From Acidimicrobiia bacterium (GTDB taxonomy: Bacteria; Actinomycetota; Acidimicrobiia; Acidimicrobiales; Aldehydirespiratoraceae): a DNA stretch of 64,000 nt. Shown here in pieces: positions 875 through 53,897 of the stretch (position 1 is its first letter; every line of letters starts with the position of its first letter). Made by a program: the position numbers and the translations under genes. The notes below the pieces were generated by a model. The model saw nothing but the letters and a program-made list of their open reading frames with translations. It was not told the origin of the DNA and ran no database searches. The DNA is taken from positions 1,403-65,402 of the forward strand of contig JAJEDD010000027.1 of assembly GCA_022821685.1 (NCBI GenBank), in the 5' to 3' direction.

Positions 875-906
875 AAGCGAGCGAATCCGGCCCGCAGAGA
901 CGAGGC
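859..906 (-). repeat. partial copy (terminal ~45 bp) of the dispersed intergenic repeat family
   Basis: cagaggccgagcgcataagcgagcgaatccggccc aligns with ..agaggccgagcgaataggcgagcgattccggccc.. of full copies (40921-41060, 36129-36262). It overlaps the predicted MCM start codon. Confidence 0.5.
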
Positions 907-9464: not shown

Positions 9465-9476
9465 AGGCAGGCGAAG

Positions 9477-9632
9477 TTGATCCGGGACTCATCAGGTTGC
9501 CGCGGTTTCATTCCCGCTCTTGTTCGCTGCGCTCACGGGCCGCCCAAACCCCGGCGTCACAGCCCACGGCCTCGCCCGTATAGCCGGACTCGCTCACCTG
9601 CCCGCTCGGCCTCTGAAAGCAGGCGAAGTTGA
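9477..9632 (+). other. 51-codon relay ORF through the repeat element (duplicated TTG start to a TGA overlapping the real ligI-like TTG)
   Basis: My translation is TTG 9477 ... AGT TGA, with TGA 9630-9632 overlapping TTG 9629-9631. The frame is open across the whole element. It is below the ORF-track size cut-off. Confidence 0.35.
9484..9612 (+). repeat. dispersed intergenic repeat, long variant, flanked by a 23-bp direct repeat
   Basis: Core ttcattcccgctcttgttcgctgcgctcacgggccg. Flanks are ctgaaggcaggcgaagttgatcc (9461-9483) and ctgaaagcaggcgaagttgatcc (9613-9635). Confidence 0.85.
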
Positions 9633-13872: not shown

Positions 13873-14028
13873 CGCACGAGCCTACTTCCGGGCCAGAGCC
13901 CGAGCCGCCCGCGAGCGAAGCGCCAGGAGCGGCAGTGGCGCCGCCGCAACTCGACGGATCTCGCATCTGTGAGCGCTCGGTCCTAGGGTTGTGGCCGTTG
14001 CGCCCCAGCACACCCACAAGGAGCCGAG

Positions 14029-15231: not shown

Positions 15232-15273
15232 CGCCCGGGGTCATCCGCCGCCGAACCAGCGCCTGCTCCAGGA

Positions 15274-15357
15274 GCGGGCGCGAGTTGGCACAGGCCCGTC
15301 GCGCCGCAGCGGGGTCATTCCGCTCTCGTTCGCTGCGCTCGACCCTCTGCGGGCCGC
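15274..15357 (+). repeat. truncated copy (left half) of the dispersed intergenic repeat
   Basis: ..gcagcggggtcattccgctctcgttcgctgcgctcgaccc.. aligns to the family core. Confidence 0.6.
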
Positions 15358-18412: not shown

Positions 18413-18439
18413 GACGTCACCTGATCCCTGTTCGAGCCT

Positions 18440-18567
18440 ACGCGGGCAAGTAAGAGCCGGTCCGTCGCAACGGGGTCATTCCCGCTCTTGTTCGCTGCGC
18501 TCACGGGCCGCTCGGGCCACGGCCTCGCCCGTATGGGCCGGAATCGCTCACCCATGCGCTCGGCCTC
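18440..18567 (+). repeat. dispersed intergenic repeat, short variant
   Basis: gtcattcccgctcttgttcgctgcgctcacgggccgctcgggccacggcctcgcccgtatgggccggaatcgctc.. Its right end supplies the last ~6 codons and the stop of the 18548..19339 gene. Confidence 0.85.
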
Positions 18568-22417: not shown

Positions 22418-22480
22418 GTCTCCTCCTGGGTATTGCGGTCGTGGTCTCGGTGGTTGGTCGACTTGAGGTGGGTGCGGCGG

Positions 22481-29112: not shown

Positions 29113-29583
29113 TCAGGGCCCGATGACTCGCTTCTCGATCTCGCTCCAGCAGGCCGCGGCGCGGTCGGCATCGAACAGCAGCGCCTCCATGCCGGCCGCA
29201 CGAGCCCCGGCGACGTTCTCGGGCTCGTCATCGACGAAGAAGACCTGATCGGCTGAGCTGTCGGTCACCATGAGTGCCCGTTGGTAGGCACGGCGGTCCG
29301 GCTTGAGCACACCGTTGTCGGAGCAGGCGATGATGTGGTCGACCTCGGCTAGGAGCGGCACTGATGTCGCCCAGGACCGGTCGATCTCGTTGCTGAGGAT
29401 CGCGACGCAGATCCCGGCCGCCCGGGCCCGGGCCACAACCGGGCGGCACTCGGGTCGTGTGGTGTCGTGCTCGGCAACCAGAGGCGAACAGCCACCGGTG
29501 TCCTGCCCGGCCACGACCTCTTGGGGGCTCAGGGTGCACACGCCGCCGTAGTCCAACAGGAGCACGCCGATGTCGCGCATCAT
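29113..29583 (-). CDS. short HAD-like protein with atypical motif I
   Basis: GVLLLDYGGV, ILSNE, LKPD and FVDDEPENV. Its start has a 4-nt overlap with the upstream ATPase gene. Confidence 0.6.
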   Translation of the reverse strand: MMRDIGVLLLDYGGVCTLSPQEVVAGQDTGGCSPLVAEHDTTRPECRPVVARARAAGICVAILSNEIDRSWATSVPLLAEVDHIIACSDNGVLKPDRRAYQRALMVTDSSADQVFFVDDEPENVAGARAAGMEALLFDADRAAACWSEIEKRVIGP

Positions 29584-30923
29584 TGCTGCCAGAGAGTCGC
29601 GACGGGTGCGGACCAGATGGTGCCGCCGCCGGTGTCGCTAGAGGCTGGCGAGAGGATCGTCGGTCGTCTGGGGCCGGTGTGGAGCACTACGCCACCGGCG
29701 AAGCGGTCCCCAAGCTGGTCGCGAAGCCATAGCAGGTGCCGGGCCTCGTTCAGCCCGGCGCGGTCGCCAGCCTTGACCTCTACACCGACCACGCCCTGCA
29801 GGCCGCCGTCGAGCACGAAGTCCACCTCCTGACCGCCGTCGCGGCGGAAGTGGCGCAGCCGATAGCCCGCCACCGTGGGATCGTGCTCGGACCGGAGCTG
29901 CGCGGCCACGAACGTCTCCATCAACCGGCCTCGCAGGTCGCCGCTGCGACCGATCGCCCAAGCGTCGGCGTCCCACATCGCGGCGGCGAGTCCGGCGTCC
30001 ACCAGCAGTCGCTTGGGAGACTTCTGCACCCGGCTGACCCCGCCGGGAATGAAAGCCGGAGCCTCGCAGGCCAGGAAGGTTCGCTCCAGCAAAGCCAGAT
30101 ACTCGCGGCCAGTGGCCCGAGTGATGCCGCTCTGCGCGCAGAGCCGCGTCAATGGCATGACCCGGCCACTGTGGGACGCATAGACGCGAGCGAACTCGAG
30201 CAGCTTGACCCGGTCCTGGCGCCCGAGCAGAGAGTCGACGTTGAGGGTCTGATCGACGCGGGCTCGAAGCGCGGCCGCTCGCAGCGGCTTGGACGACATG
30301 GCCATGGGCCTCGGGTAACCGCTCACGAGGGCCATCTCGATGTAGTCGTTGGTGTTGAACGTCGACGCGGCGTCGCCGAGATCACCGGCCGCGAGCCTGT
30401 CGAACAGCGGGGCAGCGACCGTCTGTTGCTTCTCCGCCTCCGTCAGCGGGAACATGTCGAGCGGCACGACCCGCCCGGTGCTCGGCAGTTGGCTGGCCTG
30501 CGTCGAGCGGAACGAGCCGGTGATTATGAACAGCCCGTTCTCGGCGGGTGCCCGGTCGACGATGCGTTTGACCGTCCACAGCACCTCAGGCGCCTGCTGC
30601 CACTCGTCAATCAATATCGGGGTCTCGCTCGCCTCGAACGCAGCCTGGGCGTCACGCTGGAGCAGCTCCGCGTCGTTGGGGTCGTCGAGGTAGAAGCAAG
30701 TGCCGGCATGACGCTCGGCCGTGGTCGTCTTGCCGCAGCCTCTGGGGCCGCGCAGCTCGACCGCAGGCACGGCGGCCAGCATGTCGCTGAGCCGCCGGTC
30801 GACAAGCCGCGGGATGTAGGCCCCGGACGGCGATGCTTCAAGCCGCTCGCCGAGAGTACGGCTCGGCGCAGCCCGGTCACCGCTCGCCCGAGCGGAACCC
30901 TCAAGGTCGTGCCCGCTCTTCAC
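29580..30923 (-). CDS. AAA-ATPase (AAA_14-type) with DUF4143 and a C-terminal PD-(D/E)xK-like module, paralogue 1
   Basis: Walker A GPRGCGKTT, Walker B ILIDEWQ, and the C-terminal EVDFVLDGG...VGVEVKAG. GTG start at 30923. Confidence 0.8.
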   Translation of the reverse strand: MKSGHDLEGSARASGDRAAPSRTLGERLEASPSGAYIPRLVDRRLSDMLAAVPAVELRGPRGCGKTTTAERHAGTCFYLDDPNDAELLQRDAQAAFEASETPILIDEWQQAPEVLWTVKRIVDRAPAENGLFIITGSFRSTQASQLPSTGRVVPLDMFPLTEAEKQQTVAAPLFDRLAAGDLGDAASTFNTNDYIEMALVSGYPRPMAMSSKPLRAAALRARVDQTLNVDSLLGRQDRVKLLEFARVYASHSGRVMPLTRLCAQSGITRATGREYLALLERTFLACEAPAFIPGGVSRVQKSPKRLLVDAGLAAAMWDADAWAIGRSGDLRGRLMETFVAAQLRSEHDPTVAGYRLRHFRRDGGQEVDFVLDGGLQGVVGVEVKAGDRAGLNEARHLLWLRDQLGDRFAGGVVLHTGPRRPTILSPASSDTGGGTIWSAPVATLWQQ

Positions 30924-34550: not shown

Positions 34551-34635
34551 GACAGCGTCGTTCACGGCGCCAAGTATGGCCGCGGATTCGCTGGGAGGCA
34601 ACCAAGAGGCCGAGCGCGCCCCATAGCCTCGCGCA

Positions 34636-35961: not shown

Positions 35962-35993
35962 AAGCGGCGCCCGGAACCCCGACCTGACAATCC

Positions 35994-36089
35994 GACAATC
36001 TGTACAAGAACCCTCCTGTGAATCTGTACAAGAACCACCCTGCGATTCTGTACAAGAACTACCCCGACAATCTGTACAAGAACCACCCA
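35994..36089. repeat. 4 x 24-bp perfect-period tandem array
   Basis: The units are gacaatctgtacaagaaccctcct, gtgaatctgtacaagaaccaccct, gcgattctgtacaagaactacccc and gacaatctgtacaagaaccaccca. The invariant core is tctgtacaagaac, with palindromic TGTACA. Confidence 0.95.
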
Positions 36090-36128
36090 GCGAACTTCCG
36101 CTTTGTCTCCAATGGTGCGGCAAGGGCC

Positions 36129-36262
36129 TAGAGGCCGAGCGAATAGGTGAGCGAATCCGGTTCATACGGGCGAGGCCGTGGCCCGAGCGGCCGTGAGCGC
36201 AGCGAACAAGAGCGGGAAAGACAACCTTGCGACGCGACGGGCTCTCACCTATTTGCGCTCGC
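36129..36262 (-). repeat. dispersed intergenic repeat, short variant
   Basis: tagaggccgagcgaataggtgagcgaatccggttcatacgggcgaggccgtggccc..gtgagcgcagcgaacaagagcgggaaag.. Confidence 0.85.
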
Positions 36263-36284
36263 TCTTACGGGATCAGCGATGCGT

Positions 36285-37616
36285 TCAGGCCCATAGCACT
36301 GATAGCGGTGCCGACCAGATTCGGCCCCTACGCGCATCATCGAGGGGACGGGGCCTGCGACGGCCCGTGTGCAGCAGTACGCCGCCGGTGAAGCTCTCCC
36401 CGAGCAGTTCTCTCATCCAGAAGAGGTGGCGGGCTTCGCTGCGCCCGCCGTGCACGCCCACCTTCACCTCCACCGCCACGACGCCATTGACTCCTCCGTC
36501 GAGCACGAAGTCGACCTCGCGGTCGTTGCGACGCAGATGCGCGAGCCGGTACCCGGCTGCCGATGCCGAAGCCTGGACTCGCAGCTGGGCCGCTACGAAC
36601 GTCTCCAACAGCCGACCGCGCAGATCCGCGTTGGCGCAGATGGCAGCCGCGTCGGTGTTCCAGGCAGCGGCCAACAGTCCGGCGTCGACCAACAGACGCT
36701 TGGGAGCGCGCCGCAGATGGCTGATCCTGTTGGTGTGATACGACGGGGCGTCGGCCACCAGATAGGTGCGCGACAACAGGGTCAGATACGCATCCGCAGT
36801 GTTGCGGGAGATGCCGACCTCGTCGCAGAGCCGCTGCAGCGGCACCACGCCGGCCGAATGGAGGGCGTAGCAGGCGAAGAACTCGGCCAGCTTGGAACGG
36901 TCATGGCGCCCGATCAGGCCATCGACGTTGATCGTGCCGTCGATGCGGCTGCGCAGCCGCGCTCTGCGGGCCTCCGGATCCCCCTCGTCCATCGTGGCGG
37001 GATACCCGCTCTGCAAGGCCAGGTCGATGTAGTCGTTGACGGAAAGGTCAGTCTCGTCGGTCTCCAAGTCGAGGCCCTCGAACAGTCGCCGAATAAGCGA
37101 CACCGATGCTGTGCCGCGCCGTTCGGCGACGCTGAATGGGAACATGTCGATTACTTCGCTGCGTCCCGTGAGCGGCATCTGCTCACGGTCGGCGCCGCGC
37201 ACCGACCCGGCGATGATGAACTGGCCAGGCAACGCCGAAGAGTCGACATGGGCCTTCACCGCCCACAGCACCTCGGGTGCCTCCTGCCATTCGTCGATCA
37301 GCAGAGGCGCAGGTTGGCCGAGCAGCACCGAGCCCGGATCCTCGCGGACAGCCGCAGCGGTGTGAGGATCCTGCATGACCAGCACCGCCCCTGCCTGCTG
37401 CAGAGCAGTGGTGGTCTTGCCCACGCCGCGGGGTCCGCGCAACTCGACCGCAGCCGAACGCGACAACGCCTGTTCCAATTGCACATCGGCCAGCCTTGAG
37501 ATGTAGGGCTCGCCGCCCCCCGGCGCGGCCGAGGTGAGCGCGGGCAGCGCGCTCTGCAACCTCACCGCGCGGTCACCCGCGGTCACTCGAGTTCCCTCCG
37601 CAGGCACAATCCCCAT
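36285..37616 (-). CDS. AAA-ATPase (AAA_14-type) with DUF4143 and a C-terminal PD-(D/E)xK-like module, paralogue 2
   Basis: GPRGVGKTT, LLIDEWQ and EVDFVLDGG...VAVEVKVG. It is colinear with paralogue 1 over its full length. Confidence 0.8.
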   Translation of the reverse strand: MGIVPAEGTRVTAGDRAVRLQSALPALTSAAPGGGEPYISRLADVQLEQALSRSAAVELRGPRGVGKTTTALQQAGAVLVMQDPHTAAAVREDPGSVLLGQPAPLLIDEWQEAPEVLWAVKAHVDSSALPGQFIIAGSVRGADREQMPLTGRSEVIDMFPFSVAERRGTASVSLIRRLFEGLDLETDETDLSVNDYIDLALQSGYPATMDEGDPEARRARLRSRIDGTINVDGLIGRHDRSKLAEFFACYALHSAGVVPLQRLCDEVGISRNTADAYLTLLSRTYLVADAPSYHTNRISHLRRAPKRLLVDAGLLAAAWNTDAAAICANADLRGRLLETFVAAQLRVQASASAAGYRLAHLRRNDREVDFVLDGGVNGVVAVEVKVGVHGGRSEARHLFWMRELLGESFTGGVLLHTGRRRPRPLDDARRGRIWSAPLSVLWA

Positions 37617-37663
37617 TGCCGATCCTCTGATCAGCCCGATGGCCGCTCATGCCAATATTCTAC

Positions 37664-37757
37664 AGCTTGCGCGTTCTGAAGGCTCCAACTTGAGTATTTT
37701 GAAGGCTCTAACTTGCGCGTTCTGAAGATCGTTACTTGCGCGTTTTGAAGGCTCGCC
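37664..37757. repeat. 4-unit ~23-bp tandem array upstream of ATPase paralogue 2
   Basis: The units are agcttgcgcgttctgaaggctcc, aacttgagtattttgaaggctct, aacttgcgcgttctgaagatcgtt and acttgcgcgttttgaaggctcgcc. A TAGAAT -10-like hexamer (37657-37662, minus strand) lies between the array and the start codon. Confidence 0.85.
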
Positions 37758-37800
37758 TTGATGGTGCTAGCCAAGGCTGGACACGGGCGGGCGATGGGGT

Positions 37801-39258
37801 CTACTGATCGGCGTGCTGCTCTAGGAGGCGGTTTATGGCGGCGCCGTCGGCTTTGCCTTTGGTGGCTCGCATGACTTGGCCGGTGAGGAAGCCGGCCAGC
37901 TTCTTGCGCTCGGTTTCGTCGCCGGCGCGGTAGCGGTCCCAGGCGTCGGGGTTGTCGGCGATGACCTCCTCGAGGACCGCGGCCAGGTCGTCGCCGGCCA
38001 TGGCCTCGAAGCCCCGGCGCCGGGCGATCTCGTCGGGGGCACCGCCCGCTTCGGCCATCTCGGCCAGCACCTGCTTGGCCTGGGTGGCGGTGAGCTGTCC
38101 CGCCGTCTCCATGGCGACCAGGGCGGCCAGACCGTCGGGGGTGACGCGCGACCAATTGTCGGTGGCCAGGTCGTTCACCACCCGGGTGGCGGTCACCGCC
38201 GGGTCGGCTCCGGCCGCGACAGCGGCCCGCACCAGCCGGTCCTGGTTCCGCTCCACCAGCACGGCGGCATCCGCGGCTCCCACCCCGCCCACGGCGATGA
38301 GTTCGGCCCGACGGGCGGCGGGCAGCGGTGGCAGCGCGGCATCGATAGCCGCGACCGTGTCGGCCTCTGGAGCCAGCGGCACCAGGTCGGGATCCTGGAA
38401 GTAGCGGTAGTCCTCCGCGTCCTCCTTGGAGCGGCCCGGCGTGGTGCGCCCCCGCGCCTCGTCCCAGTGGCGGGTCTCCTGGCGGGGCCGTTCACCGCTG
38501 GTCCACAGCTCCACATGGCGCTGGGCCTCGTAGACGATGGCCCGGCCGAGGGACCGCAGCGAACTCAGGTTCTTGATCTCGCAGCGGGTGCGGAGCTCGT
38601 CGGCGCCGGCGGGGCGGACCGACACGTTGGCGTCCACCCGCATCGAGCCCTCCTCCATCCGGGCGTCGGACACGCCGACGGCCAGCAGCACGGCCCGCAG
38701 CTCTCGCACATACGACCGGGCCTGCTCGGCGGTGCGGATGTCGGGGCGGCTGACGATCTCCACCAGCGGAACCCCGGCCCGGTTGTAGTCGACCAGCGCA
38801 TAGTCGGCGTCGTGGATGCGCCCGCCGCCGCCGATGTGGGTGGTCTTGCCGGTGTCCTCCTCGATGTGGGCCCGCTCGATGCCGACGGTGTGGCCGTCAA
38901 CCAGCTCGAGGCGGCCGTCGATGCTGGTGGGCTGGTCGTACTGGGAGATCTGGTAGTCCTTGGGCATGTCGGGGTAGAAGTAGTTCTTGCGGGCGAACAC
39001 CGCCCCCTGCACCTCGCATCCCAGCGCCCGGCCCAGGCGCATGGCGAAGCTAACCGCGGTGGCGTTGGGTACCGGCAGCGAGCCCGGCAGGCCCAGACAC
39101 ACCGGACACACGTTGGTGTTGGGCTCGTCGCCGAAGCGGTTGGCGCAGCCGCAGAACAGCTTGGTGGCCGTGCTCAGCTCCACATGGACCTCCAGGCCCA
39201 CCACCAGCTCCCAGCCCTCGGCCAGCGCCTGCTCCCGGCCCGTCGCAGCCGGGCTCAT
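37801..39258 (-). CDS. gatB: Asp/Glu-tRNA(Asn/Gln) amidotransferase subunit B
   Basis: Trimmed to ATG 39258. It contains WELVVGLEVHVELSTATKLFCGCANRFGDEPNTNVCPVCLGLPGSLP. Confidence 0.97.
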   Translation of the reverse strand: MSPAATGREQALAEGWELVVGLEVHVELSTATKLFCGCANRFGDEPNTNVCPVCLGLPGSLPVPNATAVSFAMRLGRALGCEVQGAVFARKNYFYPDMPKDYQISQYDQPTSIDGRLELVDGHTVGIERAHIEEDTGKTTHIGGGGRIHDADYALVDYNRAGVPLVEIVSRPDIRTAEQARSYVRELRAVLLAVGVSDARMEEGSMRVDANVSVRPAGADELRTRCEIKNLSSLRSLGRAIVYEAQRHVELWTSGERPRQETRHWDEARGRTTPGRSKEDAEDYRYFQDPDLVPLAPEADTVAAIDAALPPLPAARRAELIAVGGVGAADAAVLVERNQDRLVRAAVAAGADPAVTATRVVNDLATDNWSRVTPDGLAALVAMETAGQLTATQAKQVLAEMAEAGGAPDEIARRRGFEAMAGDDLAAVLEEVIADNPDAWDRYRAGDETERKKLAGFLTGQVMRATKGKADGAAINRLLEQHADQ

Positions 39259-39314
39259 CGGGCACCTCCGCCAGATGGCGCAGCCTGCGTCCGGCCGGGA
39301 GCAGGCCCGCTCAT
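39255..39314 (-). other. relay mini-ORF 2 (19 codons, [19 protein letters not shown])
   Basis: Its ATG overlaps the stop of mini-ORF 1 (ATGA), and its TGA overlaps the gatB ATG (ATGA). Its C-terminus copies the GatA C-terminus APSGGGAR. Confidence 0.4.
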
Positions 39315-39385
39315 GAGGCACCTCCGCCAGCGGCTGTCGTGCCACCCTGGGAGTGCTGCCGACGGCCCGCGGCAGCCGGGCTCAT
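39311..39385 (-). other. relay mini-ORF 1 (24 codons, [24 protein letters not shown])
   Basis: Its ATG overlaps the gatA TGA (ATGA). Its first 5 residues copy the GatB N-terminus MSPAA. Confidence 0.4.
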
Positions 39386-40857
39386 CGGGCACCTCCGCCA
39401 GATGGCGCGGCCTGCTCCAGCACAGCCGCGGCCCGCAGCAGTATCGGCTCCGACAGGGCCGGACCCATGAGCTGCACCCCCACCGGGAGGCCGTCGTCGC
39501 CGCTGCCGAAGGGCACCGACACTGCCGGATGGCCGGTCAGGTTCGCCGGGATCGTGCACACGTCGTTCAGGTACATCAGCAGCGGGTCGGCGGTTTTTGC
39601 CCCCAGCTCGAACGCGGTGGTCGGCGTGGTGGGGCCCAGCAGAACGTCGACATCGGCGTAGGCCGCGGCGAACTCCCGCCGCATCAGCGTGCGCACCCGC
39701 AGCGCCTTGCCGTAGAAGGCGTCGTAGTAGCCCGCCGACAGCGCGTAGGTGCCCAGCATGATCCGGCGCTTGACCTCGGCCCCGAAACCGGCGGTGCGGG
39801 TGTTGACGTTCATCTCGGCGGCGTTGGCCGCATCGACCCGCAGCCCGTAGCGCACACCGTCGTAGCGGGCCAGATTGCTCGACGCCTCGGCCGGCGCGAT
39901 CAGGTAGTACGCCGACAGGCCCAGCACCGCCGACGGCGCCGACACCACCGAGATCGACGCGCCCGCGGCCTCCAGGGCGGCCGCGGCGGTGTCGACCCTG
40001 GCGATGACGTCGGCCGCCACACCCTCTACCGCCGAACCGGCCGCACCCTCCACCCTTGTGCTGCCGGCGCACAGCTCGGCCAGCACCCCGACCCGCAGGC
40101 CGTCCACGCCCCGCTCCAGGCTGGCGGTGACAAGCTCGCGGGGGCTGTCTATCGAGGTGGAGTCGAGCGGGTCGTGGCCCGAGATGGCCTCGTAACAGGC
40201 TGCCGCGTCGGCGACGGTGGCCGCGATGGGGCCGATCTGGTCGAGCGACGAGGCGAAGGCCACCAGCCCGTAGCGCGACACCCGACCGTAGGTGGGCTTG
40301 AGGCCGACCACGCCGCACAGCGCGGCGGGCTGGCGAATCGACCCGCCGGTGTCGGACCCCAGCGCCAGGGGCGCGAATCGGGCCGCCACCGCCGCAGCCG
40401 AGCCGCCGCTGGAGCCTCCCGGCACCCGGCTGGTGTCGTGGGGATTGCGGGTGGGACCGAAGGCGGAGTTCTCGGTGGAGGAGCCCATGGCAAACTCGTC
40501 GAGATTGGTCTTTCCCACCACGACCGCGCCGGCGGCGCGAAGCCGCTGAACCACGGTGGCGTCGTAGGGCGGATGCCAGCCCTCGAGCATCCGCGACGAG
40601 CAGGTGGTGGGAACGCCCCGGGTGCAGAGGTTGTCCTTGAGCGCCACGGGCACGCCGGCCAGCGGCCCGACCGGCTCGCCCCGAGCCAGCGCCGAGTCGA
40701 TCCTGGCGGCATCGGCGCGGGCCTCGGCGGCCAGCACCAGGTTGAAGGCACCGATCTCGCCGTCTCGTTCGGCGATGCGGTCCAGATGCTCCTCCACGAC
40801 GGCCGCGGCGCTGCGTTCCCCAGATTTGACCGCAGCCGCAAGCGCAAGGGCGCTCAC
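39382..40857 (-). CDS. gatA: Asp/Glu-tRNA(Asn/Gln) amidotransferase subunit A
   Basis: [24 protein letters not shown] and the amidase signature [16 protein letters not shown] start at 40857. Confidence 0.97.
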
Positions 40858-41090
40858 GTCGCCGTCCCTTGTGTCAGCGGCAACTCGAACCGGCCGCCGG
40901 CGAGCGACCTTGCCGTCTCGGGGCTAAGAGGCCGAGCGAATAGGCGAGCGATTCCGGCCCATACGGGCGAGGCCGTGGCCCGAGCGGCCCGTGAGCGCAG
41001 CGAACAAGAGCGGGAATGACCCCGCTGCGACGCGAGGGGCTTGCACCTACCCGCGCACGCTCTAGGCAACCGGGCTGTCCGACGGCTCAC
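40854..41090 (-). other. 78-codon relay ORF spanning the repeat element between gatC and gatA
   Basis: Listed in the ORF track. Its GTG (41090-41088) overlaps the gatC TGA (41089-41087), and its TGA (40856-40854) overlaps the gatA GTG (40857-40855). Confidence 0.4.
40921..41060 (-). repeat. dispersed intergenic repeat, short variant, full length (reference copy)
   Basis: gggctaagaggccgagcgaataggcgagcgattccggcccatacgggcgaggccgtggcccgagcggcccgtgagcgcagcgaacaagagcgggaatgaccccgctgcgacgcgaggggcttgcacctacccgcgcacgc. Confidence 0.9.
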
Positions 41091-41422
41091 GGTGCCTCGC
41101 CCAGGATGGGCGGCACCCGGAACTGGCCGCTGTCGACCGACGGCGCCTGGGCCAGCACCTCGTCGCGCTCCAGCGACGCCCGCACCTCGTCGGCGCGCAT
41201 CACGTTGACGAGTGGATGGGGATGCGATGTCGGCTCGATGTCGGTCACGTCGAGCGCCTCGACATCGGCGGCGTGGTCGAGCACCGCCGAGAGCTGCGCA
41301 GCCAGCTCGTCGAGTTCCTCGTCGCGGAAGCGCAGACGGGCCAGCCGGGCCACATGGGCCGCCTCTGCGCGGGTTATCCGGCCGGACACGTCGGAAGGAT
41401 AGGCCGCTCGCTCTAGCAGCAA
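41087..41422 (-). CDS. gatC: Asp/Glu-tRNA(Asn/Gln) amidotransferase subunit C
   Basis: ITRAEAAHVARLARLRFRDEELDELAAQLSAVLDHA...L. The start is uncertain: TTG 41422 from the track, or GTG 41389 giving MSGRITRAE... Confidence 0.85.
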   Translation of the reverse strand: MLLERAAYPSDVSGRITRAEAAHVARLARLRFRDEELDELAAQLSAVLDHAADVEALDVTDIEPTSHPHPLVNVMRADEVRASLERDEVLAQAPSVDSGQFRVPPILGEAP

Positions 41423-41540
41423 GCGCGGATTGACGGTGGGGTCTCGCGCCGCAGCGGGTCTTTCCCGCTCTTGTTCGCTGCGCTCACGGGCCGCCCAAAC
41501 CCCAGCGACACAGCCGACGGCCTCGCACGCTCGGCCTCAG
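41423..41540 (+). repeat. dispersed intergenic repeat, long variant with an internal deletion
   Basis: ..gcagcgggtctttcccgctcttgttcgctgcgctcacgggccgcccaaaccccagcgacacagccgacggcctcgcacgctcggcctca. The kinase stop codon (41537-41539) lies in its right end. Confidence 0.8.
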
Positions 41541-43351
41541 GAGTCGGAGTCCTCGCTCTCGGGTTCGAGGTCCTCGGCTTCGTCTGCTGGGGGCTCAGGC
41601 TCGGGTGGCGGCACGGGGCCCAGCGAGACCAGTACTCGCACCGTGCTGCCTATCGGCACCGCCGAGCCGCTGGCCGGGCGGAAGCCGATCACGCTTCCCT
41701 CGGCCACGTCGTCCGAGAACTCCAGCACGACCCGCGGCGCCAGCCCTGTGTCGTCCAGCGCGTCGGCGGCGTCCCCCGGCTCCAGGCTCTCGGGCACCGC
41801 GGGAACCGTCCGATCAGCCGGGCCGTCCGACACCAGCAGCTTGACCTCGCGGCCCGGCTCCAGCTCGTAGACGCCCTCAGCGACGTCGAGGCCGACCACG
41901 TTCCCAGACGGCACCACTTCATCGTGGACCGGCGTCGTGCCGCCCAGACCCAAACCGGCGGCGTCGAGCTCCGCGGCGGCGTCGTTCACCGTCATGCCGT
42001 ACAGCCCGTCGAGATCGGCGAGCGGCACCAGCGGCTCGCCCAGCGAGACGAACACGTCCAGCGTCGCACCTTCGGCCAGCGTGGCGCCGGCCGCGGGCTC
42101 GGTGCCGACGATCTCGCCCCGCTCGGTGCCCGCGGCGCGAACCAGGATCTCGTTGGCCTCCCAACCCATGTCGGCCGCAGCCGACACCGCCGCCTCACCG
42201 GTGTGGCCCGCGAGCTCGGGAACGGTGGGATCGGACTCGCCGAGCCAAACCCAGACCCCGCCCGCGGCGGCGCCCGCCACCAGCATGGTGGCCAGCGCCA
42301 GCCCCGGCCAGCGTCGGCGAAGCACGTCGTCGTGGGGGATGGCCGAACGCTCCGACACGGTGGGGCCGACCTGCTCGAAGGCCTCGGTGCTGTCGGCCGG
42401 GGGCGGACCCTCGTCGCTGGGCGGGGCCTTTGCGACAGCCAGCGGGAGCGGGTCGGGGCGCGGCAGCAGCGACGCCACCCGCAGCAGTTCCGATGCCAGC
42501 TCGGAGGCGGTCAGCCGTCCGATGGGGTCGGCCGCGATGGCGCGCTCCAGCACGGCTTGGAGCGGACCGAGGGCGGTGATGGGAATCGGGTCCGAGCCAC
42601 CGACGTCAACCGTCAGCTCTCGGGCGCCGGTGACCGCCTCGCACAGGACCAGGGCCAAGTCGTGAACGTCCTGGGCCTGCTCGATCCGGGAGTGGCTCAG
42701 CGCCCCGCCACCGGGATCGGCGGCATCACGGCTAGCCGGGTCGGCGCCCTCGGGGCCATCGCGCAACTGGGGGCCGGCATCTCGCGCCACCGCGGGATCA
42801 TCCCCGCTGTGGTGTGCCGCGCTCGCGGGCTGCTCCTCCCCGAGGGCCACCGCCAGACCGAGGTCGGAGATGTAGGGCCTGGAGCTGGAGTCGAACAGGA
42901 TGCTGGCAGGCGTGAGGCCGAGATGGGCCCGACCGTCGCGGTGGACGTTCACCAGTGCTCGTGCAGCCTCCAGCCCGACCATGAGCGCCTGCGACGGAGT
43001 GAGCCGATATCCCTCCCGCAGCACCGCGGCCAAGCTGCCGCCGGTGAGGTACTCCGTCACCGCGTAGGGCTGCGGCTCGAGGCCCCAGTCGTACACCGGC
43101 AGCACCCGAGGATGGCTCAGCGCGGCGGTCGCACGCATCTCGTCGGCGAAGCGCTCAGCGAAGCCGGCCCGCTCAGCGGCGTCGGCCCGCAGGATCTTGA
43201 GCGCCACCCGCCGACGCAGCGCGAGATCCTCGGCCACGTAGACGCGTGCGTTCGATCCCTCGCCCACGAACTCCAGCAGCCGGTAGCGGCCACCGAAGGC
43301 CCGGCTGGCGTCCTGGCTGGCGATCACCGTCGCCACGGTACCGCCCGACAC
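41537..43351 (-). CDS. PASTA-domain Ser/Thr-kinase-like protein, predicted pseudokinase
   Basis: GEGSNARVY and VALK are present. However, the catalytic loop reads HLGLTPASIL instead of HRDxKPxN, DFG is DLG, and APE is absent. It has one TM segment and three PASTA-like repeats. Confidence 0.8.
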   Translation of the reverse strand: MSGGTVATVIASQDASRAFGGRYRLLEFVGEGSNARVYVAEDLALRRRVALKILRADAAERAGFAERFADEMRATAALSHPRVLPVYDWGLEPQPYAVTEYLTGGSLAAVLREGYRLTPSQALMVGLEAARALVNVHRDGRAHLGLTPASILFDSSSRPYISDLGLAVALGEEQPASAAHHSGDDPAVARDAGPQLRDGPEGADPASRDAADPGGGALSHSRIEQAQDVHDLALVLCEAVTGARELTVDVGGSDPIPITALGPLQAVLERAIAADPIGRLTASELASELLRVASLLPRPDPLPLAVAKAPPSDEGPPPADSTEAFEQVGPTVSERSAIPHDDVLRRRWPGLALATMLVAGAAAGGVWVWLGESDPTVPELAGHTGEAAVSAAADMGWEANEILVRAAGTERGEIVGTEPAAGATLAEGATLDVFVSLGEPLVPLADLDGLYGMTVNDAAAELDAAGLGLGGTTPVHDEVVPSGNVVGLDVAEGVYELEPGREVKLLVSDGPADRTVPAVPESLEPGDAADALDDTGLAPRVVLEFSDDVAEGSVIGFRPASGSAVPIGSTVRVLVSLGPVPPPEPEPPADEAEDLEPESEDSDS

Positions 43352-44404: not shown

Positions 44405-45916
44405 TCAGGCTTCGCCGCAGGCCAAGGCTCTCAGCAACTTCAAGTCCTTAGGATCTTCCATCTCGATGACGGCGTGGACCGGCTTGTCGGGTCCGGTCAC
44501 TGCCTGAAGGGCGCGATGCCCGGCGCTGTTGGTGGCGGGCCGGTCGGTGGTGAGCAGCACCAGCGGCTGGTCGCAGCCAGCCGTGTGGAGGACGGACGCC
44601 CGACCGATCGCCTTCCACAGGGTGTCAGTGCGACGAAGCCCGGGCCGTTGGGTGACGCTGAAGGCACCCGACACGTCGAACAGCCATCGCCGGCCCTGGA
44701 GGTCGACAGCGGAAAAATTGACTTCGACGCCGCAAGAGAAGGAGACCTTGTCACGGATCCGTTCGAAGCCGCACTTCTCCAGGACTTTCCGGGCCTTCTC
44801 CTGCGCCTTGCGGCCTTCGAGCACAGACCGAGCCTGAAAATCTTCGCCCGGCGAAGGATGAGCTCCGTTGGCGGACACCGGTGAGGTGGAGGTTGTCCTG
44901 CGAGCATCCTCACCCAAATCCTCGAACAGGCTGGACTGGCCGTTTGCACTCGTCGATTCCCACCGCGGGGGGCTTGTGCCTTCGAGGCCGCTCTCCCTTT
45001 CTCTGGCGATGCGCTGTTTGGCTAGTTCGATGTAGCCCTCATCGGTATCGAAGCCGACGTAATGGCGGCCGGTGCGGACCGCGGCGACTGCCGTCGTTCC
45101 CGATCCCATGAATGGATCTAGCACGAGATCTTGCTCATAGGTGTAGAGGTCGATTAGTCGCTCCGGCAAGGCGACTGGGAACGGTGCGGGATGTCCCACC
45201 CGGGTAGCCGATTCGGTTGGGATTTTCCAGACATCGACCGTGGCGTCCATGAACTCGTCGGCGTTGGTTGTCGGACGAGAAGGCAACTCTCGATCAACCC
45301 TGTAGGACGGGGACAGAGCCCGGTCGAATCGGCCCTTGGACGCGATCACGATGCGCTCGGTCAGATCTCGGAGAACCGGGTTGGTCGGCAATTCGAAGCT
45401 GCCCCAAGCGCAGTTCCCGCCCGCTCCCTCGGCCTTTTGCCAGATCACCTCACCCCGCAGCAACAAACCCAGGTCGTCCTGGAGGATTCCAATCACATCC
45501 GAAGAAAGCGAGCGATACGGACGGCGTCCGAGATTAGCGACGTTGACAGCAATACGGCCCCCCGGCTCGAGCTTGCGGCTGCACACGTCCAACACGTCTC
45601 GAAGCATCTGCAGATAATCCTTGTAGCTGGCCGGGACATGGCCCTCCCCGACTGCCTGCTCGTACTCCTTGCCTGCGAAGTACGGCGGAGAGGTAACGAC
45701 TAGCGCGACCGAATTGTCCGCTACCTGCTCGTCGCTCATCCGTCGGGCGTCGGCCACCCAGAGACGGTCCCGGCACGCAGGCGGCGTGATGTGGTCTTCG
45801 TTGCTGGTTTCCGGCACCGGAAACCGTTCGTAGAACGCTGAAGAGTCGTGGCCCTCCCGTCGGCCCACACCGAAGCTGGATGTGGCCGTGGCCGCGCGCT
45901 GGGTCAAGAGGCTCAC
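44405..45916 (-). CDS. beta-class N4/N6 DNA methyltransferase with an extra ~150-aa C-terminal domain
   Basis: Motif IV VVTSPPY precedes motif I LDPFMGSGTT (beta order). SPPY favours N4-cytosine. The C-terminal domain (GRKAQEKARKVLEKCGFERI...VNFSAVD...WLFDVSG) is unassigned. Confidence 0.85.
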   Translation of the reverse strand: MSLLTQRAATATSSFGVGRREGHDSSAFYERFPVPETSNEDHITPPACRDRLWVADARRMSDEQVADNSVALVVTSPPYFAGKEYEQAVGEGHVPASYKDYLQMLRDVLDVCSRKLEPGGRIAVNVANLGRRPYRSLSSDVIGILQDDLGLLLRGEVIWQKAEGAGGNCAWGSFELPTNPVLRDLTERIVIASKGRFDRALSPSYRVDRELPSRPTTNADEFMDATVDVWKIPTESATRVGHPAPFPVALPERLIDLYTYEQDLVLDPFMGSGTTAVAAVRTGRHYVGFDTDEGYIELAKQRIARERESGLEGTSPPRWESTSANGQSSLFEDLGEDARRTTSTSPVSANGAHPSPGEDFQARSVLEGRKAQEKARKVLEKCGFERIRDKVSFSCGVEVNFSAVDLQGRRWLFDVSGAFSVTQRPGLRRTDTLWKAIGRASVLHTAGCDQPLVLLTTDRPATNSAGHRALQAVTGPDKPVHAVIEMEDPKDLKLLRALACGEA

Positions 45917-46045: not shown

Positions 46046-48142
<2,097 letters not shown>

Positions 48143-48236: not shown

Positions 48237-48358
48237 GCGGCCGAGCTTGCGAGGCCGTGGGCTGTGTTGCCGGGGTTTGGACGGCCCGGGCGCGAAGCGA
48301 ACAAGAGCGGTAATGACACCACTGCGACGCAACCGGCTTGCACCTACCCGCGAACGCG
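48237..48358 (-). repeat. dispersed intergenic repeat, long variant (diverged)
   Basis: gcggccgagcttgcgaggccgtgggctgtgttgccggggtttggacggcccgggcgcgaagcgaacaagagcggtaatgacaccactgcgacgcaaccggcttgcacctacccgcgaacgc. Confidence 0.8.
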
Positions 48359-48427
48359 CTTGGGGACTGCCCGGTGGCACACTTGCAGGCCGTGCGAGCT
48401 GCTGAACGAACCCAGGGGAGGGCCGCG

Positions 48428-49596: not shown

Positions 49597-49995
49597 GTGA
49601 CCACGGCGCTGGCTGACGGCAATGTCCTTATCGCGCTGACGGTAACCGACCACATCCACCATCGGGGGGCGCGGGAGTGGGTTGCGAGCCATTGCGACCA
49701 ACTGGCCACCTGTCCGATCACTCAGGGAACTCTGTTGCGGTTCTTGCTGCGGACGGAGGTGGGCGCAAACGGCGCCCTCGAAGCCCTGATCCAGATTGTC
49801 TCGCTGCCCCGACACGTCTTCTGGCCCGACGAGATCGGCTACGACGCGGCGGTTCTCAGGGGAGTGGCCGGACACCGTCAGGTCACCGACTCATATCTCG
49901 TCGCGCTGGCCAAACACTTCGGGGGATCGCTGGTGACCCTGGACAAGGCGCTGGCGGCCGTCCATCCCGACACGGTCGAGCTGATCGCCACCTGA
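49597..49995 (+). CDS. vapC: PIN-domain toxin VapC
   Basis: LADGNVLIAL (PIN Asp), ...CPITQGTLLRFL... and ...QVTDSYLVALA...LVTLD. Confidence 0.8.
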   Translation: MTTALADGNVLIALTVTDHIHHRGAREWVASHCDQLATCPITQGTLLRFLLRTEVGANGALEALIQIVSLPRHVFWPDEIGYDAAVLRGVAGHRQVTDSYLVALAKHFGGSLVTLDKALAAVHPDTVELIAT

Positions 49996-50011: not shown

Positions 50012-50160
50012 GGCTAAGGGGCCGAGCGAATAGGCGAACGAATTCGGCCCATACGGGCGAGGCCGTGGGCTGTGGTGCCGGGGTTTGGGCGACCCGTGAG
50101 CGCAGCGAACAAGAGCGGGAATGCCCCCAGTGCGACGCGACTGGCTCTCACCGATTTGCA
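50012..50160 (-). repeat. dispersed intergenic repeat, long variant, full length
   Basis: ggctaaggggccgagcgaataggcgaacgaattcggcccatacgggcgaggccgtgggctgtggtgccggggtttgggcgacccgtgagcgcagcgaacaagagcgggaatgcccccagtgcgacgcgactggctctcaccgatttgca. Confidence 0.9.
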
Positions 50161-50166
50161 GGCCCT

Positions 50167-51375
50167 CTAAGGAACCTCGGCCCTTGTCGAGCGGGTGGCG
50201 GTGCCGCCTCCCACTACGACATCGCCCGCGTAGGCGACCACGCTCTGGCCGGAGGCAACCTTGCGGCGGGGCTCGGCCCAGTACACCGCGGCACCGTCGG
50301 AGTCGATGGTGGCCTCCGCCGCGGTGCCGTGGGCCGAGGTCTGCACCAGCACGGGGCCGTCCACAGGTCCGTGCGTCCAGCGCCAGTCCTGCAGCGGCGT
50401 CGCCGAGCAGTCGAGCTCTGACCGGCTGCCCACCGTCACCGTCGACGACTCGGGGTGGACATCGAGCACATAGCGGGGCGATCCCCCGCCCATCGCGCCG
50501 AGGCCGCGGCGCTGGCCGACCGTCACCAACTCCAGCGCCTCGACGGTGCCGACCTGGCGGCCCGCAGTGTCCACCACCCGGCCCGGACGCATCGGGATGC
50601 GCTCATCGAGGAACTTGCGGCGACCGGCCGCGGCGGTGATGAAACACACGTCCTGGCTGTCGGGCTTGGCCGCCGTGACCAGACTCCGGGCCTCGGCCTC
50701 GCGCCGCACCTCGTCCTTGGTCGTCTCCCCCACCGGCAGCAGCAGCCGCTCCAGCACCGAAGTGCCGAGCATGTGCAAAACGTAGGACTGGTCCTTGGCG
50801 GCATCGGCGCCCCGGGCCAGCCGGGGTCCGGCCGCGGTCGAGACGATGCGGGCGTGGTGGCCGGTCGCCACCCGGTCGAAGCCCAGCGCGTCGGCCCGGC
50901 GCAGCAGTCGGTCGAACTTGATGTGCCGGTTGCACTCCACACAGGGATTGGGGGTGAGGCCGGCGGCATGGTCGGCGGCGTACGGGGCCACCACATGGCG
51001 CTCGAAGTCGTCGCCGAAGTTGAAGACGTGGTGCTCGATGCCCAACTCGTCGGCCGCCCAGCGGGCATCGTCCACATCGGACACCGAGCAGCAGCCGGTG
51101 TCGCTGGGTCCGCCCCAGAGCTTCATGGTGACTCCCGCTACGTCGTATCCCGCGTCGAGCAGGCGGGCCGCGGCCACCGATGAGTCCACCCCACCCGACA
51201 TGGCCACCAGCACCCTCGGGCCTCGAGCCCCGCCGATGCCGCCGGTTCCGTCCGCCCCGGCCGCTTCGCGAGGCGCGGACCGACCGCTCACACCGGCACC
51301 GCCGGTTCCGTCCGCCTCAGCCGCTTCGCGAGGCGCGGACCGCCTGATCGCGCCAGTGCCGCCGGTTCCGTCCAT
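50167..51375 (-). CDS. mnmA: tRNA 2-thiouridine(34) synthase
   Basis: PP-loop VAMSGGVDSS and CVECNRHIKFD. ATG 51375 would add a 54-aa repeat-containing extension; alternative starts are GTG 51213 and ATG 51201. Confidence 0.93.
   Translation of the reverse strand: MDGTGGTGAIRRSAPREAAEADGTGGAGVSGRSAPREAAGADGTGGIGGARGPRVLVAMSGGVDSSVAAARLLDAGYDVAGVTMKLWGGPSDTGCCSVSDVDDARWAADELGIEHHVFNFGDDFERHVVAPYAADHAAGLTPNPCVECNRHIKFDRLLRRADALGFDRVATGHHARIVSTAAGPRLARGADAAKDQSYVLHMLGTSVLERLLLPVGETTKDEVRREAEARSLVTAAKPDSQDVCFITAAAGRRKFLDERIPMRPGRVVDTAGRQVGTVEALELVTVGQRRGLGAMGGGSPRYVLDVHPESSTVTVGSRSELDCSATPLQDWRWTHGPVDGPVLVQTSAHGTAAEATIDSDGAAVYWAEPRRKVASGQSVVAYAGDVVVGGGTATRSTRAEVP
51231..51374. repeat. 60-bp tandem repeat, ~2.4 copies, at the iscS-mnmA junction
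   Basis: Units at 51241-51300 and 51301-51360 both begin gccggttccgtccgcc..gccgcttcgcgaggcgcggaccg, with a partial third unit at 51361-51374. On the minus strand they read in frame as DGTGG.G...RSAPREAA.A. Confidence 0.9.
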
Positions 51376-51376
51376 G

Positions 51377-52549
51377 TCAGCCTCCGTCGAAGCGGTCGAG
51401 GCGTGCGACGGACTCCGCGATGACCTCGACGGCCTGCTCCACGTCGGAGGCGGCGCTGGTGTGGCCGAGCGACAGCCGCAGCGACCCCAGGGCCACTTCG
51501 CGGGGCACCCCCATGGCGGCCAGCACATGGGACGGATCCTGGGCGCCGCTGGAGCACGAGGAGGCGGCCGAGGCCCGCACCCCGGCCGCGTCGATCAGGA
51601 ACAGCAGCGCCTCGCTCTGAACCCCGGTGATGCACACGTTGGCGATGCCGGCCGCGATGTGGCCGCGGTCGCTCCCGCAGGGCGCGGCCGAGACTGTCAA
51701 CCGGTCGCCGAGCCGGTCGGCGAGGCCGTCGATCAGGGCATCGCGCAGGACGCGGAGCCGCTCGACGCTGCCCTCGCGCTGCTCGACGGTCTCAGTCAGC
51801 GCCGCCGCCAGCGACACCGCTCCGGCCACATCGGGAGTTCCGGCCCGCCGGCCCCTCTCCTGTCCACCCCCGACGATCAGCGGGTCGAGCTCAACGCCGT
51901 CTCGCACGACCAGCACACCGGTCCCGACGGGGGAGCCCACCTTGTGGCCGGTCACCGACACGAGGTCGTAGTCGGCCGTCTCCGCGGCCACATCGATCCA
52001 GTTCACCGCCTGCACTGCGTCGGTGTGCAGCAAGGCGACGGGAGCCAGCTCGCGCACGACGCCGGCCACCTCTCGAAGCGGCGTGATCGATCCGGTCTCG
52101 TTGTTGACTGCGATCACCGACACCACCGCCACGTTGCCGTCGCGGGCTCGCAGCACCTCGGCCAGCGCGTCGAGGTCGACGATGCCCCGCCGGTCAACCC
52201 CCACCATCACGCCGCCGGAGCGCTCCACCGGATCGTGCACCGCGTGGTGCTCGGCCTCAGTGGTCACCGCCACCGCGTCAGGCCCTCGGAGCCCGAGAGC
52301 GCCCCGCACCGCCATGTTGTCGGCCTCGCTGCCACCCGAGGTGAACACGATCTCACCGGGACGGGCGCCAAGCGCGGCAGCTACCTGCTCGCGGGCCCGG
52401 TCCAGCGCCCGACGGGCCTCACGGGCGGCCAGATGCGACCCGGTGGGGTTGGCGTGGTGCCGGTCGGCCGCGGCCAGCCAGGCGTCTCGGGCCACGGCCC
52501 GCAGCGGCGTGGATGCGGCGTGGTCGAGATAGACCTCGCGCTCAGACAC
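51377..52549 (-). CDS. iscS: cysteine desulfurase (IscS/NifS family)
   Basis: YLDHAASTP, FTSGGSEADN, SVTGHKVGSPVGTG (PLP Lys) and the C-terminal SSCSSG active-site Cys loop. Confidence 0.9.
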   Translation of the reverse strand: MSEREVYLDHAASTPLRAVARDAWLAAADRHHANPTGSHLAAREARRALDRAREQVAAALGARPGEIVFTSGGSEADNMAVRGALGLRGPDAVAVTTEAEHHAVHDPVERSGGVMVGVDRRGIVDLDALAEVLRARDGNVAVVSVIAVNNETGSITPLREVAGVVRELAPVALLHTDAVQAVNWIDVAAETADYDLVSVTGHKVGSPVGTGVLVVRDGVELDPLIVGGGQERGRRAGTPDVAGAVSLAAALTETVEQREGSVERLRVLRDALIDGLADRLGDRLTVSAAPCGSDRGHIAAGIANVCITGVQSEALLFLIDAAGVRASAASSCSSGAQDPSHVLAAMGVPREVALGSLRLSLGHTSAASDVEQAVEVIAESVARLDRFDGG

Positions 52550-53541: not shown

Positions 53542-53585
53542 GGCCCGGTCTTCGCTCGCTCTTCGCTCGCCTGTTCGCTCGACCG

Positions 53586-53897
53586 CTAGAGCGAGACGAA
53601 GGCCTCGCTCATGCCCAGGGCGTTGACCTCGACCACCTCGGTCACGCCGGGCACGCGGTCGCGCATGATCCGCTCGATGCCCGCTTTGAGGGTCTGGGTG
53701 GACGCCGGGCAGGTGACGCAGGCGCCGTGGAGCTCGACGGTGACGACCCCGGTGGCCTCGTCGACCTCGACCAGGTCGATGTCTCCCTCGTCAGCCTGAA
53801 TGGCGGGCCGGATGATCTTGATGATCTTCTCCACTTCGGCCCGCACGGCCCCAGTCTCGCAGCACCCGCCCCCAACTCCGACCCGCTGGCCCGCCAC
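53586..53897 (-). CDS. NifU C-terminal (Nfu-type) Fe-S scaffold domain protein
   Basis: IRPAIQADEGDIDLVEVDEATGVVTVELHGACVTCPAS. The start codon is uncertain. Confidence 0.75.
   Translation of the reverse strand: MAGQRVGVGGGCCETGAVRAEVEKIIKIIRPAIQADEGDIDLVEVDEATGVVTVELHGACVTCPASTQTLKAGIERIMRDRVPGVTEVVEVNALGMSEAFVSL

Follow-up and report, generated by a model that had tools for sequence, protein, structure and literature searches.

Several families of small dispersed repeats offer points of comparison for short elements between bacterial genes. The Correia elements of Neisseria (also known as NEMIS) are miniature inverted-repeat transposable elements (MITEs) of about 100–155 bp which have inverted repeats, reach a high copy number, include length variants with internal deletions and insert next to genes; they show a TA duplication and well conserved repeats of 26 bp. 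The BOX elements of Streptococcus pneumoniae are built of two pairing end modules placed around a middle module of about 45 nt that occurs in variable tandem number. MITEs derived from insertion sequences (IS) of the IS5 type have a eukaryotic counterpart in the Tourist MITEs of PIF/Harbinger, with a TWA duplication. This study deals with a dispersed G+C-rich repeat in a stretch of 64,000 nt from a member of the Acidimicrobiia (GenBank assembly GCA_022821685.1, contig JAJEDD010000027.1, positions 1,403 to 65,402), hereafter the window, in whose numbering coordinates are given. The copies of this repeat are very probably those of a non-autonomous, non-coding DNA transposon, that is, a MITE, moved by a DDE transposase of the IS5 family.

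An initial annotation based on the letters alone had considered a repetitive extragenic palindromic (REP) sequence, a MITE, an element like the mycobacterial interspersed repetitive units (MIRUs) or a small structured RNA. Among these options the MITE is retained, REP and structured RNA are abandoned, and the term MIRU is apt only for the minority of loci at which the repeat is tandemly expanded. Five properties by which MITEs are recognized are found together: the repeat is small (under about 600 bp) and non-coding, it is bounded by inverted repeats, it is flanked by a duplication of fixed length, it is dispersed with presence/absence differences, and an autonomous element sharing its ends occurs in the same lineage.

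Structure of the repeat

All nine copies that had been listed initially were recovered independently by repeat finding, BLAST and nhmmer in the window. The 35-nt core gives five matches with three mismatches or fewer, against none expected from 100 dinucleotide-preserving shuffles. The total amounts to 9–10 copies of about 125–150 bp plus fragments (9–12 when fragments are counted), covering approximately 1.3 kb or 2% of the window. The repeat was also followed in loci from related or MITE- and IS-bearing genomes, designated here by L-numbers; L115–L119 are syntenic loci found via GatC homologues, and all loci other than these five and the window were chosen by an exact 25-nt match inside the core.

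Full copies measure 125–165 bp and present their parts in the order TNA, 5′ inverted repeat (GAGCGTGCGCGGATAGGTG) with an arm of about 30 nt, 54-nt core (TCCCGCTCTTGTTCGCTGCGCTCACGGGCCGCTCGGGCCACGGCCTCGC), variable segment of 10–50 nt, 3′ repeat (CGCCTATCCGCTCGGCCTC) and TNA. The two length variants described at the outset are confirmed and differ by 15 nt inserted or deleted downstream of the core; the copies at 41416 and 48238 have a further indel, of about 27 nt, close to the 3′ end. The repeat is non-coding, as indels among the copies and a 46-nt unit that is tandemly repeated at some loci are not multiples of three, and the 27-codon frame through the core that starts with MFAALTGR is not kept across the length variants.

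The statement that obvious terminal inverted repeats are lacking proved to be wrong. Imperfect repeats of about 20 nt are present at the termini, as seen when GAGCGTGCGCGGATAGGTG is compared with GAGGCCGAGCGGATAGGCG, the 3′ end in reverse complement, and the boundaries of the element are sharp across 72–75 aligned full-length copies. In the fold of the copy at 36124–36268 the ends pair over about 15 bp. Pairing of a 5′ end is stronger with the 3′ end of the same copy (−20.0 kcal/mol) than with 3′ ends taken from other copies (−18.95 kcal/mol), an advantage reached in only 5 of 5000 permutations. Immediately outside the GAG...CTC termini, 17 of 74 copies have the same three bases on both sides, TNA in 16 cases (TTA 6, TAA 5, TCA 4, TGA 1); shuffling of partners gives an expectation of 6.0 identical flanks with a maximum of 15 in 2000 shuffles, and shifted boundaries give 0–4. 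Since the middle base of the flank varies and yet agrees on both sides, the duplication points to a staggered cut and not to a fixed recognition motif or a longer palindrome. Perfect duplications in the window surround the copies at 50018–50167 (TTA) and 9465–9613 (TGA).

Conservation is distributed unevenly along the element. Among 72 copies, mean pairwise identity is 58% for the 5′ repeat, 55% for the remainder of the 5′ arm, 94% and 92% for the two halves of the core (92–95% over the core range), 39% for the variable part of the 3′ arm and 83% for the 3′ repeat. Abbreviated forms with a length of about 65 nt are found repeatedly in different genomes, and head-to-tail dimers with a shared central TNA occur in L051, L095, L030, L011 and L005, a behavior typical of IS-type elements. 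The dimers fit with insertion beside existing ends, as do the copies of the 5′ end that follow the 3′ end in the window (9462–9635), L009 and L064. In the window case a 22-nt direct repeat (21 of 22 positions identical; 9462–9483 and 9614–9635) surrounds the copy at 9465–9613: the first unit represents the diverged 5′ end (first 19 nt of the element), and the second, past the 3′ end, provides the TTG start (9629) of an amidohydrolase gene. The corresponding repeats in L009 (6349) and L064 (5880) are 14 nt long.

Solo 3′ termini of 13 nt (CCGCTCGGCCTCT) without a core are also encountered (L079 3899–3925, L112 2685–2697, L031 364–376, L077 7613–7625, L001 6140–6191); some make up the last codons and the stop of a gene, others lie 20–60 nt upstream of a start codon, and L001 holds a mini-element of 45 bp consisting of the two ends alone. 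Cores without a following 3′ end were considered as possible IS copies and turned out to be truncated or diverged MITEs.

At some loci a unit of 44–46 nt, which comprises the last 10 nt or so of the 5′ arm and the first part of the core, is expanded in tandem to as many as 36 perfect copies. The largest array (L114, 2341–4003) is perfect, contains 36.2 copies of the 46-nt unit and lies inside one MITE just past a stop codon; smaller ones occur in L090, L047, L065, L083 and L073. A repeat of about 90 nt built of the 5′ arm and the core is found in L098. The unit is bracketed by short direct repeats, GCTCGGG, and slippage or unequal exchange between these would most likely give rise to the arrays.

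Partner element, insertion polymorphism and alternative readings

A metagenome scan with the 17-nt repeat GAGGCCRMGCGGATAGG returned mostly sequences other than the MITE. When the matches to two arm profiles were paired, many pairs lay 960–1010 bp apart and represented complete insertion sequences, 15 of which (957–1008 bp) were obtained from the metagenome. Their inverted repeats read GAGGCCGCGCGGATAGG and GAG(G/C)(C/G)T(C/G)(A/C)GCGGATAGG, with variants that include GCGGATAGG and GCCAATAGG, and two of the 15 carry exactly the 5′ consensus of the MITE, GAGCGTGCGCGGATAGG. The 3-nt flanks are identical in 10 of the 15 copies and are TNA in every one of the ten. The IS has a single open reading frame (ORF) of 280 aa that encodes an IS5-family transposase, with matches to NCBIfam NF033580 (155 bits, cut-off 110), Pfam DDE_Tnp_1 (55 bits, cut-off 23) and DUF4096.

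The ends of the two elements correspond closely. In the complete IS of L244 (2421–3378), which reads TAA followed by GAGGCCGCGCGGATAGGCG at one end and CACCTATCCGCTGACGCTC followed by TAA at the other, 18/19 and 17/19 positions agree with the MITE ends. The MITE 3′ end corresponds to the transposase-proximal left inverted repeat (IRL, 18/19) and the MITE 5′ end to the right inverted repeat adjoining the transposase stop codon (IRR, 17/19); a motif ACCGCTG located about 35 nt in from the IRR-type end is also common to both elements. Three insertions of a 968-bp IS in L240–L242 have an identical 281-aa transposase, identical ends and a TAA flank each.

The partner shares its hosts with the MITE. 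When the IS transposases were compared by tblastn with the window and with the Acidimicrobiia loci, one strong match emerged, in L059, an Acidimicrobiales chromosome where the IS is 1.2 kb away from a MITE and its end reads TTA followed by GAGCGTCAGCGGATAGGTGGG. Homologues of the transposase at 74–86% identity are annotated as IS5 family transposases of Candidatus (Ca.) Poriferisodalis or Acidimicrobiales, and the MITE-bearing sequences OZ220724.1 and OZ220472.1 hold the IS as well, one cluster of homologues being located on OZ220472.1. On the latter sequence (L242, 3492–4823) a second DDE transposase gene (DDE_Tnp_1_4, 443 aa) adjoins the IS5-family IS, and the surrounding HipA and PIN toxin genes make this region a cluster of mobile and toxin-antitoxin genes.

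Other searches for a partner gave no candidate. Inverted-repeat pairs 0.4–4 kb apart in the first 114 loci enclosed ordinary genes between two MITEs, 84 ORFs taken from stretches of atypical codon usage had no transposase among the Pfam families listed, and an all-against-all BLAST of the loci for repeated segments of IS size detected synteny only.

A study of actinobacterial IS elements (PMC2516522) characterizes the IS1031 group of the IS5 family by its single ORF and by insertion at a site of three nucleotides. Both features are found in the partner IS. Judged by its size, its GAG ends, the length of its target and its number of ORFs, the partner would appear to resemble this group. The GAG termini and the length range are presumably those of the IS1031 group.

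Flanking genes in L115–L119 are 83–89% identical to those of the window; gatC and gatA overlap (ATGA) without interruption in all five loci, and the spacer between the kinase gene and gatC is 22 nt long and free of MITE in four of them (L116–L119). As these orthologous junctions are empty, both copies that flank gatC in the window represent insertions. Over about 80 kb no MITE copy is present in any of L116–L119 and two are found in the fifth syntenic genome, compared with five in the same stretch of the window. The copy at 48238–48361 is absent in L119, and L080 carries a copy (without a recognizable 5′ arm) where the window retains a remnant of 23 nt. Attempts to reconstruct a clean empty site at L107/L023 and L014/L009 failed, the flanks not being homologous.

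The exact 25-nt core piece occurs in at least 114 stretches from at least 46 species-level assemblies of a species-representative genome collection. The matches listed are all metagenome-assembled genomes (MAGs) of Acidimicrobiia, several with labels of sponge studies; they include Ca. Aldehydirespirator and Ca. Poriferisodalis, and two families of Acidimicrobiales that bear a name, Ca. Poriferisodalaceae and Ca. Aldehydirespiratoraceae, are represented among the hosts. No core match was obtained in a viral contig collection and no relevant match in plasmid and phage collections, and no paper in the literature library searched gives the repeat sequence or deals with Poriferisodalis or with MITEs of Acidimicrobiia from sponges. 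Given that Rfam and the plasmid and phage collections give no match and the sequence is in no paper found, the repeat family appears to be undescribed so far.

The MITE is probably moved in trans by the DDE transposase of the IS5-family IS of about 1 kb that occurs in the same Acidimicrobiales lineages. The enzyme would recognize both MITE ends, as copies of the IRR and IRL of its own IS, and would cut a TNA trinucleotide with a 3-nt stagger, leaving TNA duplicated on both sides of the MITE. What the sequences show directly is the structure, the duplication in both elements, the insertion polymorphism, the agreement of the ends and the presence of MITE and IS in the same genomes; mobilization by this transposase and a MITE that is still active are inferences. 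The choice of target also accounts for the location of the copies: in a genome of about 68% G+C, TNA is mostly found in stop codons or between genes, so that copies gather at gene ends and operon junctions. The 3′-side termini overlap stop codons by 1–3 nt in 19 of 73 cases.

A number of observations weigh against transposition of a MITE by such a partner. Transposition itself was not observed, a perfect duplication is retained in only 23% of the copies, and approximately 15–20% of them have no recognizable 5′ arm. The pattern of conservation is atypical for a textbook MITE, the internal core exceeding both ends and the 5′ repeat being poorly conserved (58%). Between the core and the IS no similarity is detectable, and no transposase of the partner family was detected by tblastn in the 64-kb window, so that an association in cis cannot be demonstrated for the host's own genome. 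Finally, several window copies are embedded in extra sequence instead of occupying a clean empty site. In the case of the MITE between gatC and gatA, about 90 nt of additional sequence (40858–40927 and 41063–41086) are missing from the related genomes, and the whole insert of 235 bp is bounded by a direct repeat, GTGAGC, that duplicates the overlapping stop/start.

Three alternatives in which the repeat is not a MITE have to be weighed against these data. A repeat family made up of genes for small structured non-coding RNAs, or of cis-regulatory RNAs, as envisaged in the initial annotation, would agree with the conserved internal sequence and the position of the copies between genes. However, Rfam gave no match at gathering or at permissive thresholds (window, the two gatC-flanking copies and the L114 array), minimum-free-energy z-scores of three copies against shuffled sequences range from −0.6 to +0.2 on both strands, and RNAalifold on 72 copies returned nine invariant pairs and no compensatory changes. 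A candidate hairpin in the 5′ arm with seemingly covarying stems was dropped because it is no more stable than shuffled sequences (mean z −0.31). Both orientations relative to the neighboring genes are observed, and RNA genes are not characterized by inverted repeats or by duplicated targets; a structured RNA is thus very improbable.

Even less credible is a REP/REPIN element moved by a RAYT (Y1/HUH) transposase or a palindromic element derived from IS200/IS605: the repeat is short, G+C-rich and intergenic, with some internal dyad symmetry and ends of unequal conservation, but a TNA that varies and is the same on both flanks indicates a staggered-cut duplication without a fixed cleavage motif, the ends match the inverted repeats of an IS5-family element which has a DDE enzyme and leaves an identical type of duplication, and no hairpin is stable beyond shuffled controls. 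The diagnostic features of REP/REPIN are therefore lacking (there is a duplication, a DDE partner and no stable hairpin), RAYT genes not having been searched for. The third alternative, a host-selected intergenic signal that is not mobile (a terminator, an mRNA stabilizer or a MIRU-like operon spacer), could explain why many copies begin within a few nucleotides of a stop codon, why one lies inside the gatCAB operon and why tandem arrays exist. It is nonetheless highly unlikely: orientation relative to neighboring genes is unbiased across 132 copies, including with respect to the upstream gene (on the 5′ side, 46 co-oriented and 73 divergent); no terminator-like stem with a T-run is present; the TNA target accounts for the nearness to stop codons; and related genomes work without the element at the same junctions.

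A different question is whether the 54-nt core is itself functional, as a site for a host or transposase-associated protein, a short RNA or a regulatory module, so that function and not transposition keeps it constant. Its identity of 92–95% contrasts with 58% in the 5′ repeat, 83% in the 3′ repeat and 39% in the variable arm, and the high values extend to 30 nt outside the search pattern; as only the first half of the core is part of that pattern, its conservation is not merely a matter of ascertainment. The core is unrelated to the IS and is common to two families of Acidimicrobiales. In addition, an orthologous trio of copies (L026 6150–6560, L067 570–980, L094 5310–5720) lies in a divergent intergenic region of three species with both flanking genes homologous, and here the core and the last 19 nt are 100% identical, whereas the adjoining sequence is scrambled or replaced (in L094 the variable 3′ arm has given way to unrelated sequence), a pattern that suggests gene conversion or selection on the core.

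Against a function stand the lack of an Rfam match and of stable or covarying structure, the lack of promoter- or terminator-like sites in a scan for them and of orientation bias relative to genes, and the choice of the L-numbered loci other than L115–L119 by their core match. The same pattern would result, without any function, if gene conversion took place among hundreds of copies with nothing but the core in common. The core is thus either needed in cis or by the host, or kept uniform by gene conversion among the copies that share it, and maintenance by function is regarded as unlikely. There is likewise a low probability that the core is a functional module (a protein-binding or RNA-level signal) which the MITE has spread to hundreds of intergenic sites. 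If so, it would constitute a MITE-borne regulatory or genome-organizing network specific to sponge-symbiont Acidimicrobiales, with a core kept constant across two families, vertically inherited copies included. The central question raised by this family is why the transposon ends are less well conserved than an internal segment which has no relation to the transposase element.

Copies and other features of the window

According to codon-position G+C analysis and Pfam assignments every copy in the window is intergenic or touches a stop or start codon, as had been noted from the start, and many are within a few bases of one. Copy boundaries are given without the flanking 3-nt duplication. The gatC gene (41087–41422) is bracketed by two copies, one toward a PknB-like kinase gene and the other toward gatA. 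The copy between gatC and gatA (39382–40857) is a full-length short variant at 40928–41062 on the minus strand, flanked by CTA and TTA. The copy on the other side (41416–41538, plus strand) has the long core variant and a shortened 3′ arm, and lies between the stop of the kinase gene (41537–43351) and the gatC start. Inside the kinase gene a weak nhmmer match to the 5′ arm and core (42761–42850, E 1e-5) is probably due to chance, the orthologues being of equal length; it directly follows a Pkinase domain which covers only positions 1–153 of the 263-position Pfam model.

Three other full-length copies are recognized. The long variant with the TTA duplication (50018–50167, minus strand) supplies the end of a gene, its 5′ flank TTA together with the first G of the element forming the TAG stop of mnmA (50167–51528). 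A short variant at 36131–36264 (minus strand) is flanked by TAA and TAG and resides in a segment of 1.86 kb without counterpart in related genomes, and another short variant at 18434–18567 (plus strand) is 96% identical over 106 nt to the copy between gatC and gatA. The copy with the TGA duplication (9465–9613, plus strand) is a long variant with a diverged 5′ repeat, and that at 48238–48361 (minus strand) is diverged, combines the long core variant with a 3′ arm of reduced length and lies in the divergent region between ligA (46046–48133) and a gene of about 300 aa. A truncated copy at 15272–15357 (plus strand), downstream of the stop of the gene at 13987–15231, comprises the 5′ repeat, the 5′ arm and the first half of the core only.

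The original list of copies was incomplete, as a degenerate copy in a divergent intergenic region (13891–13987, minus strand; nhmmer E 9e-5 and E 1e-7) had been missed and is added here. A 3′-arm or 3′-end fragment occurs at 854–906 (minus strand), just past the stop of the gene at 923–1726. The two possible fragments suspected around 34603 and 53540 were both recovered: the first is a 23-nt remnant (AAGAGGCCGAGCGCGCCCCATAG; 34603–34625, minus strand) which keeps the terminal 12–13 nt at exactly the syntenic site of the L080 copy, and the second a probable 3′-end fragment (53562–53589, plus strand) with 85–88% identity over 25–28 nt.

The segment of 1.86 kb mentioned above (35966–37823) is missing from the syntenic L080 and L116–L119 and looks like an inserted module. 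Besides the MITE at 36131–36264 it carries an ATPase gene with AAA_14 and DUF4143 domains (36285–37616, minus strand), a paralogue of which is present at 29580–30923, and it is bounded by tandem repeats of 24 nt (3.8 units, 35997–36088) and 23 nt (3.9 units, 37666–37754). Another insertion, of about 905 bp relative to L119 (49293–50197), lies between the convergent mnmA and the gene of about 300 aa, and includes a PIN-domain toxin gene (49597–49995), a possible upstream antitoxin ORF and the MITE at 50018–50167; in L115 the mnmA junction contains the MITE only.

The junction between gatA and gatB (39229–39415) contains three units of about 60 nt, each with a start codon and a Shine-Dalgarno-like motif on the minus strand, and is 83 bp longer than in L116–L119, where both genes overlap; this repeat is an operon-junction duplication without a MITE. 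An 80-nt tRNA-Pro(GGG) called by ARAGORN (21554–21633, minus strand) inside a long ORF with high G+C at third codon positions (20624–22480) is doubtful, and Rfam at gathering threshold detects no tRNA anywhere in the window. Lastly, a gene for an N6/N4 DNA methyltransferase (44405–45916) has a G+C content of 0.63 compared with about 0.69; its orthologues in L115–L119 are only about 71–73% identical, which indicates a fast-evolving or exchanged component of a restriction-modification system.

Relation to known systems

The repeat has practical consequences for the genomes that contain it, as it disturbs gene calling through spurious ORFs, gene ends made of repeat sequence and split operon junctions (gatC/gatA). 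Its copy number differs sharply between close relatives and could therefore serve as a strain marker, and the 46-nt arrays are possible variable-number tandem-repeat loci for uncultivated sponge symbionts. Several genera cohabiting in sponges have the MITE in common, an observation consistent with an exchange of mobile DNA inside the sponge microbiome.

REP and REPIN sequences with their RAYT enzymes are likewise short, G+C-rich, intergenic and very numerous, but REPs are palindromes of 20–40 nt which make no target duplication and depend on a Y1 enzyme. MIRUs, compared here by their description, resemble the repeat in their occurrence in Actinomycetota, in their intergenic positions within operons near stop and start codons and, at some loci, in a tandem unit length of about 46 nt; they differ in that they are defined as direct repeats in tandem which follow the direction of transcription and have neither inverted repeats nor a duplication. 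Most copies of the present repeat consist of a single unit between inverted repeats and show no orientation bias, which separates them from a minisatellite of the MIRU type. BOX elements have a similar modular build with an expandable middle (36 units of 46 nt in L114 and the smaller arrays); however, their sequence and host phylum are unrelated, and the repeat described here mostly contains a single unit and has an identified transposase partner with matching ends.

The Correia elements resemble it in size, length variants, insertion next to genes and a short duplication containing T and A, and differ from it in that the duplication is TNA here and conservation is weak in the 5′ repeat and highest in an internal part. 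The closest agreement is with IS of the IS5/IS1031 type and the MITEs derived from them, which have in common with the present elements the 3-bp TNA duplication, the GAG...CTC termini, ends that match at 17–18 of 19 positions and a single DDE transposase of about 280 aa in an IS of approximately 0.96–1.0 kb. With its partner IS the MITE shares only about 20 nt per end and the ACCGCTG motif, the interior being unrelated. The repeat qualifies as a MITE of an IS5-family element, an ordinary kind of genomic parasite which is unusual only in its conserved middle.

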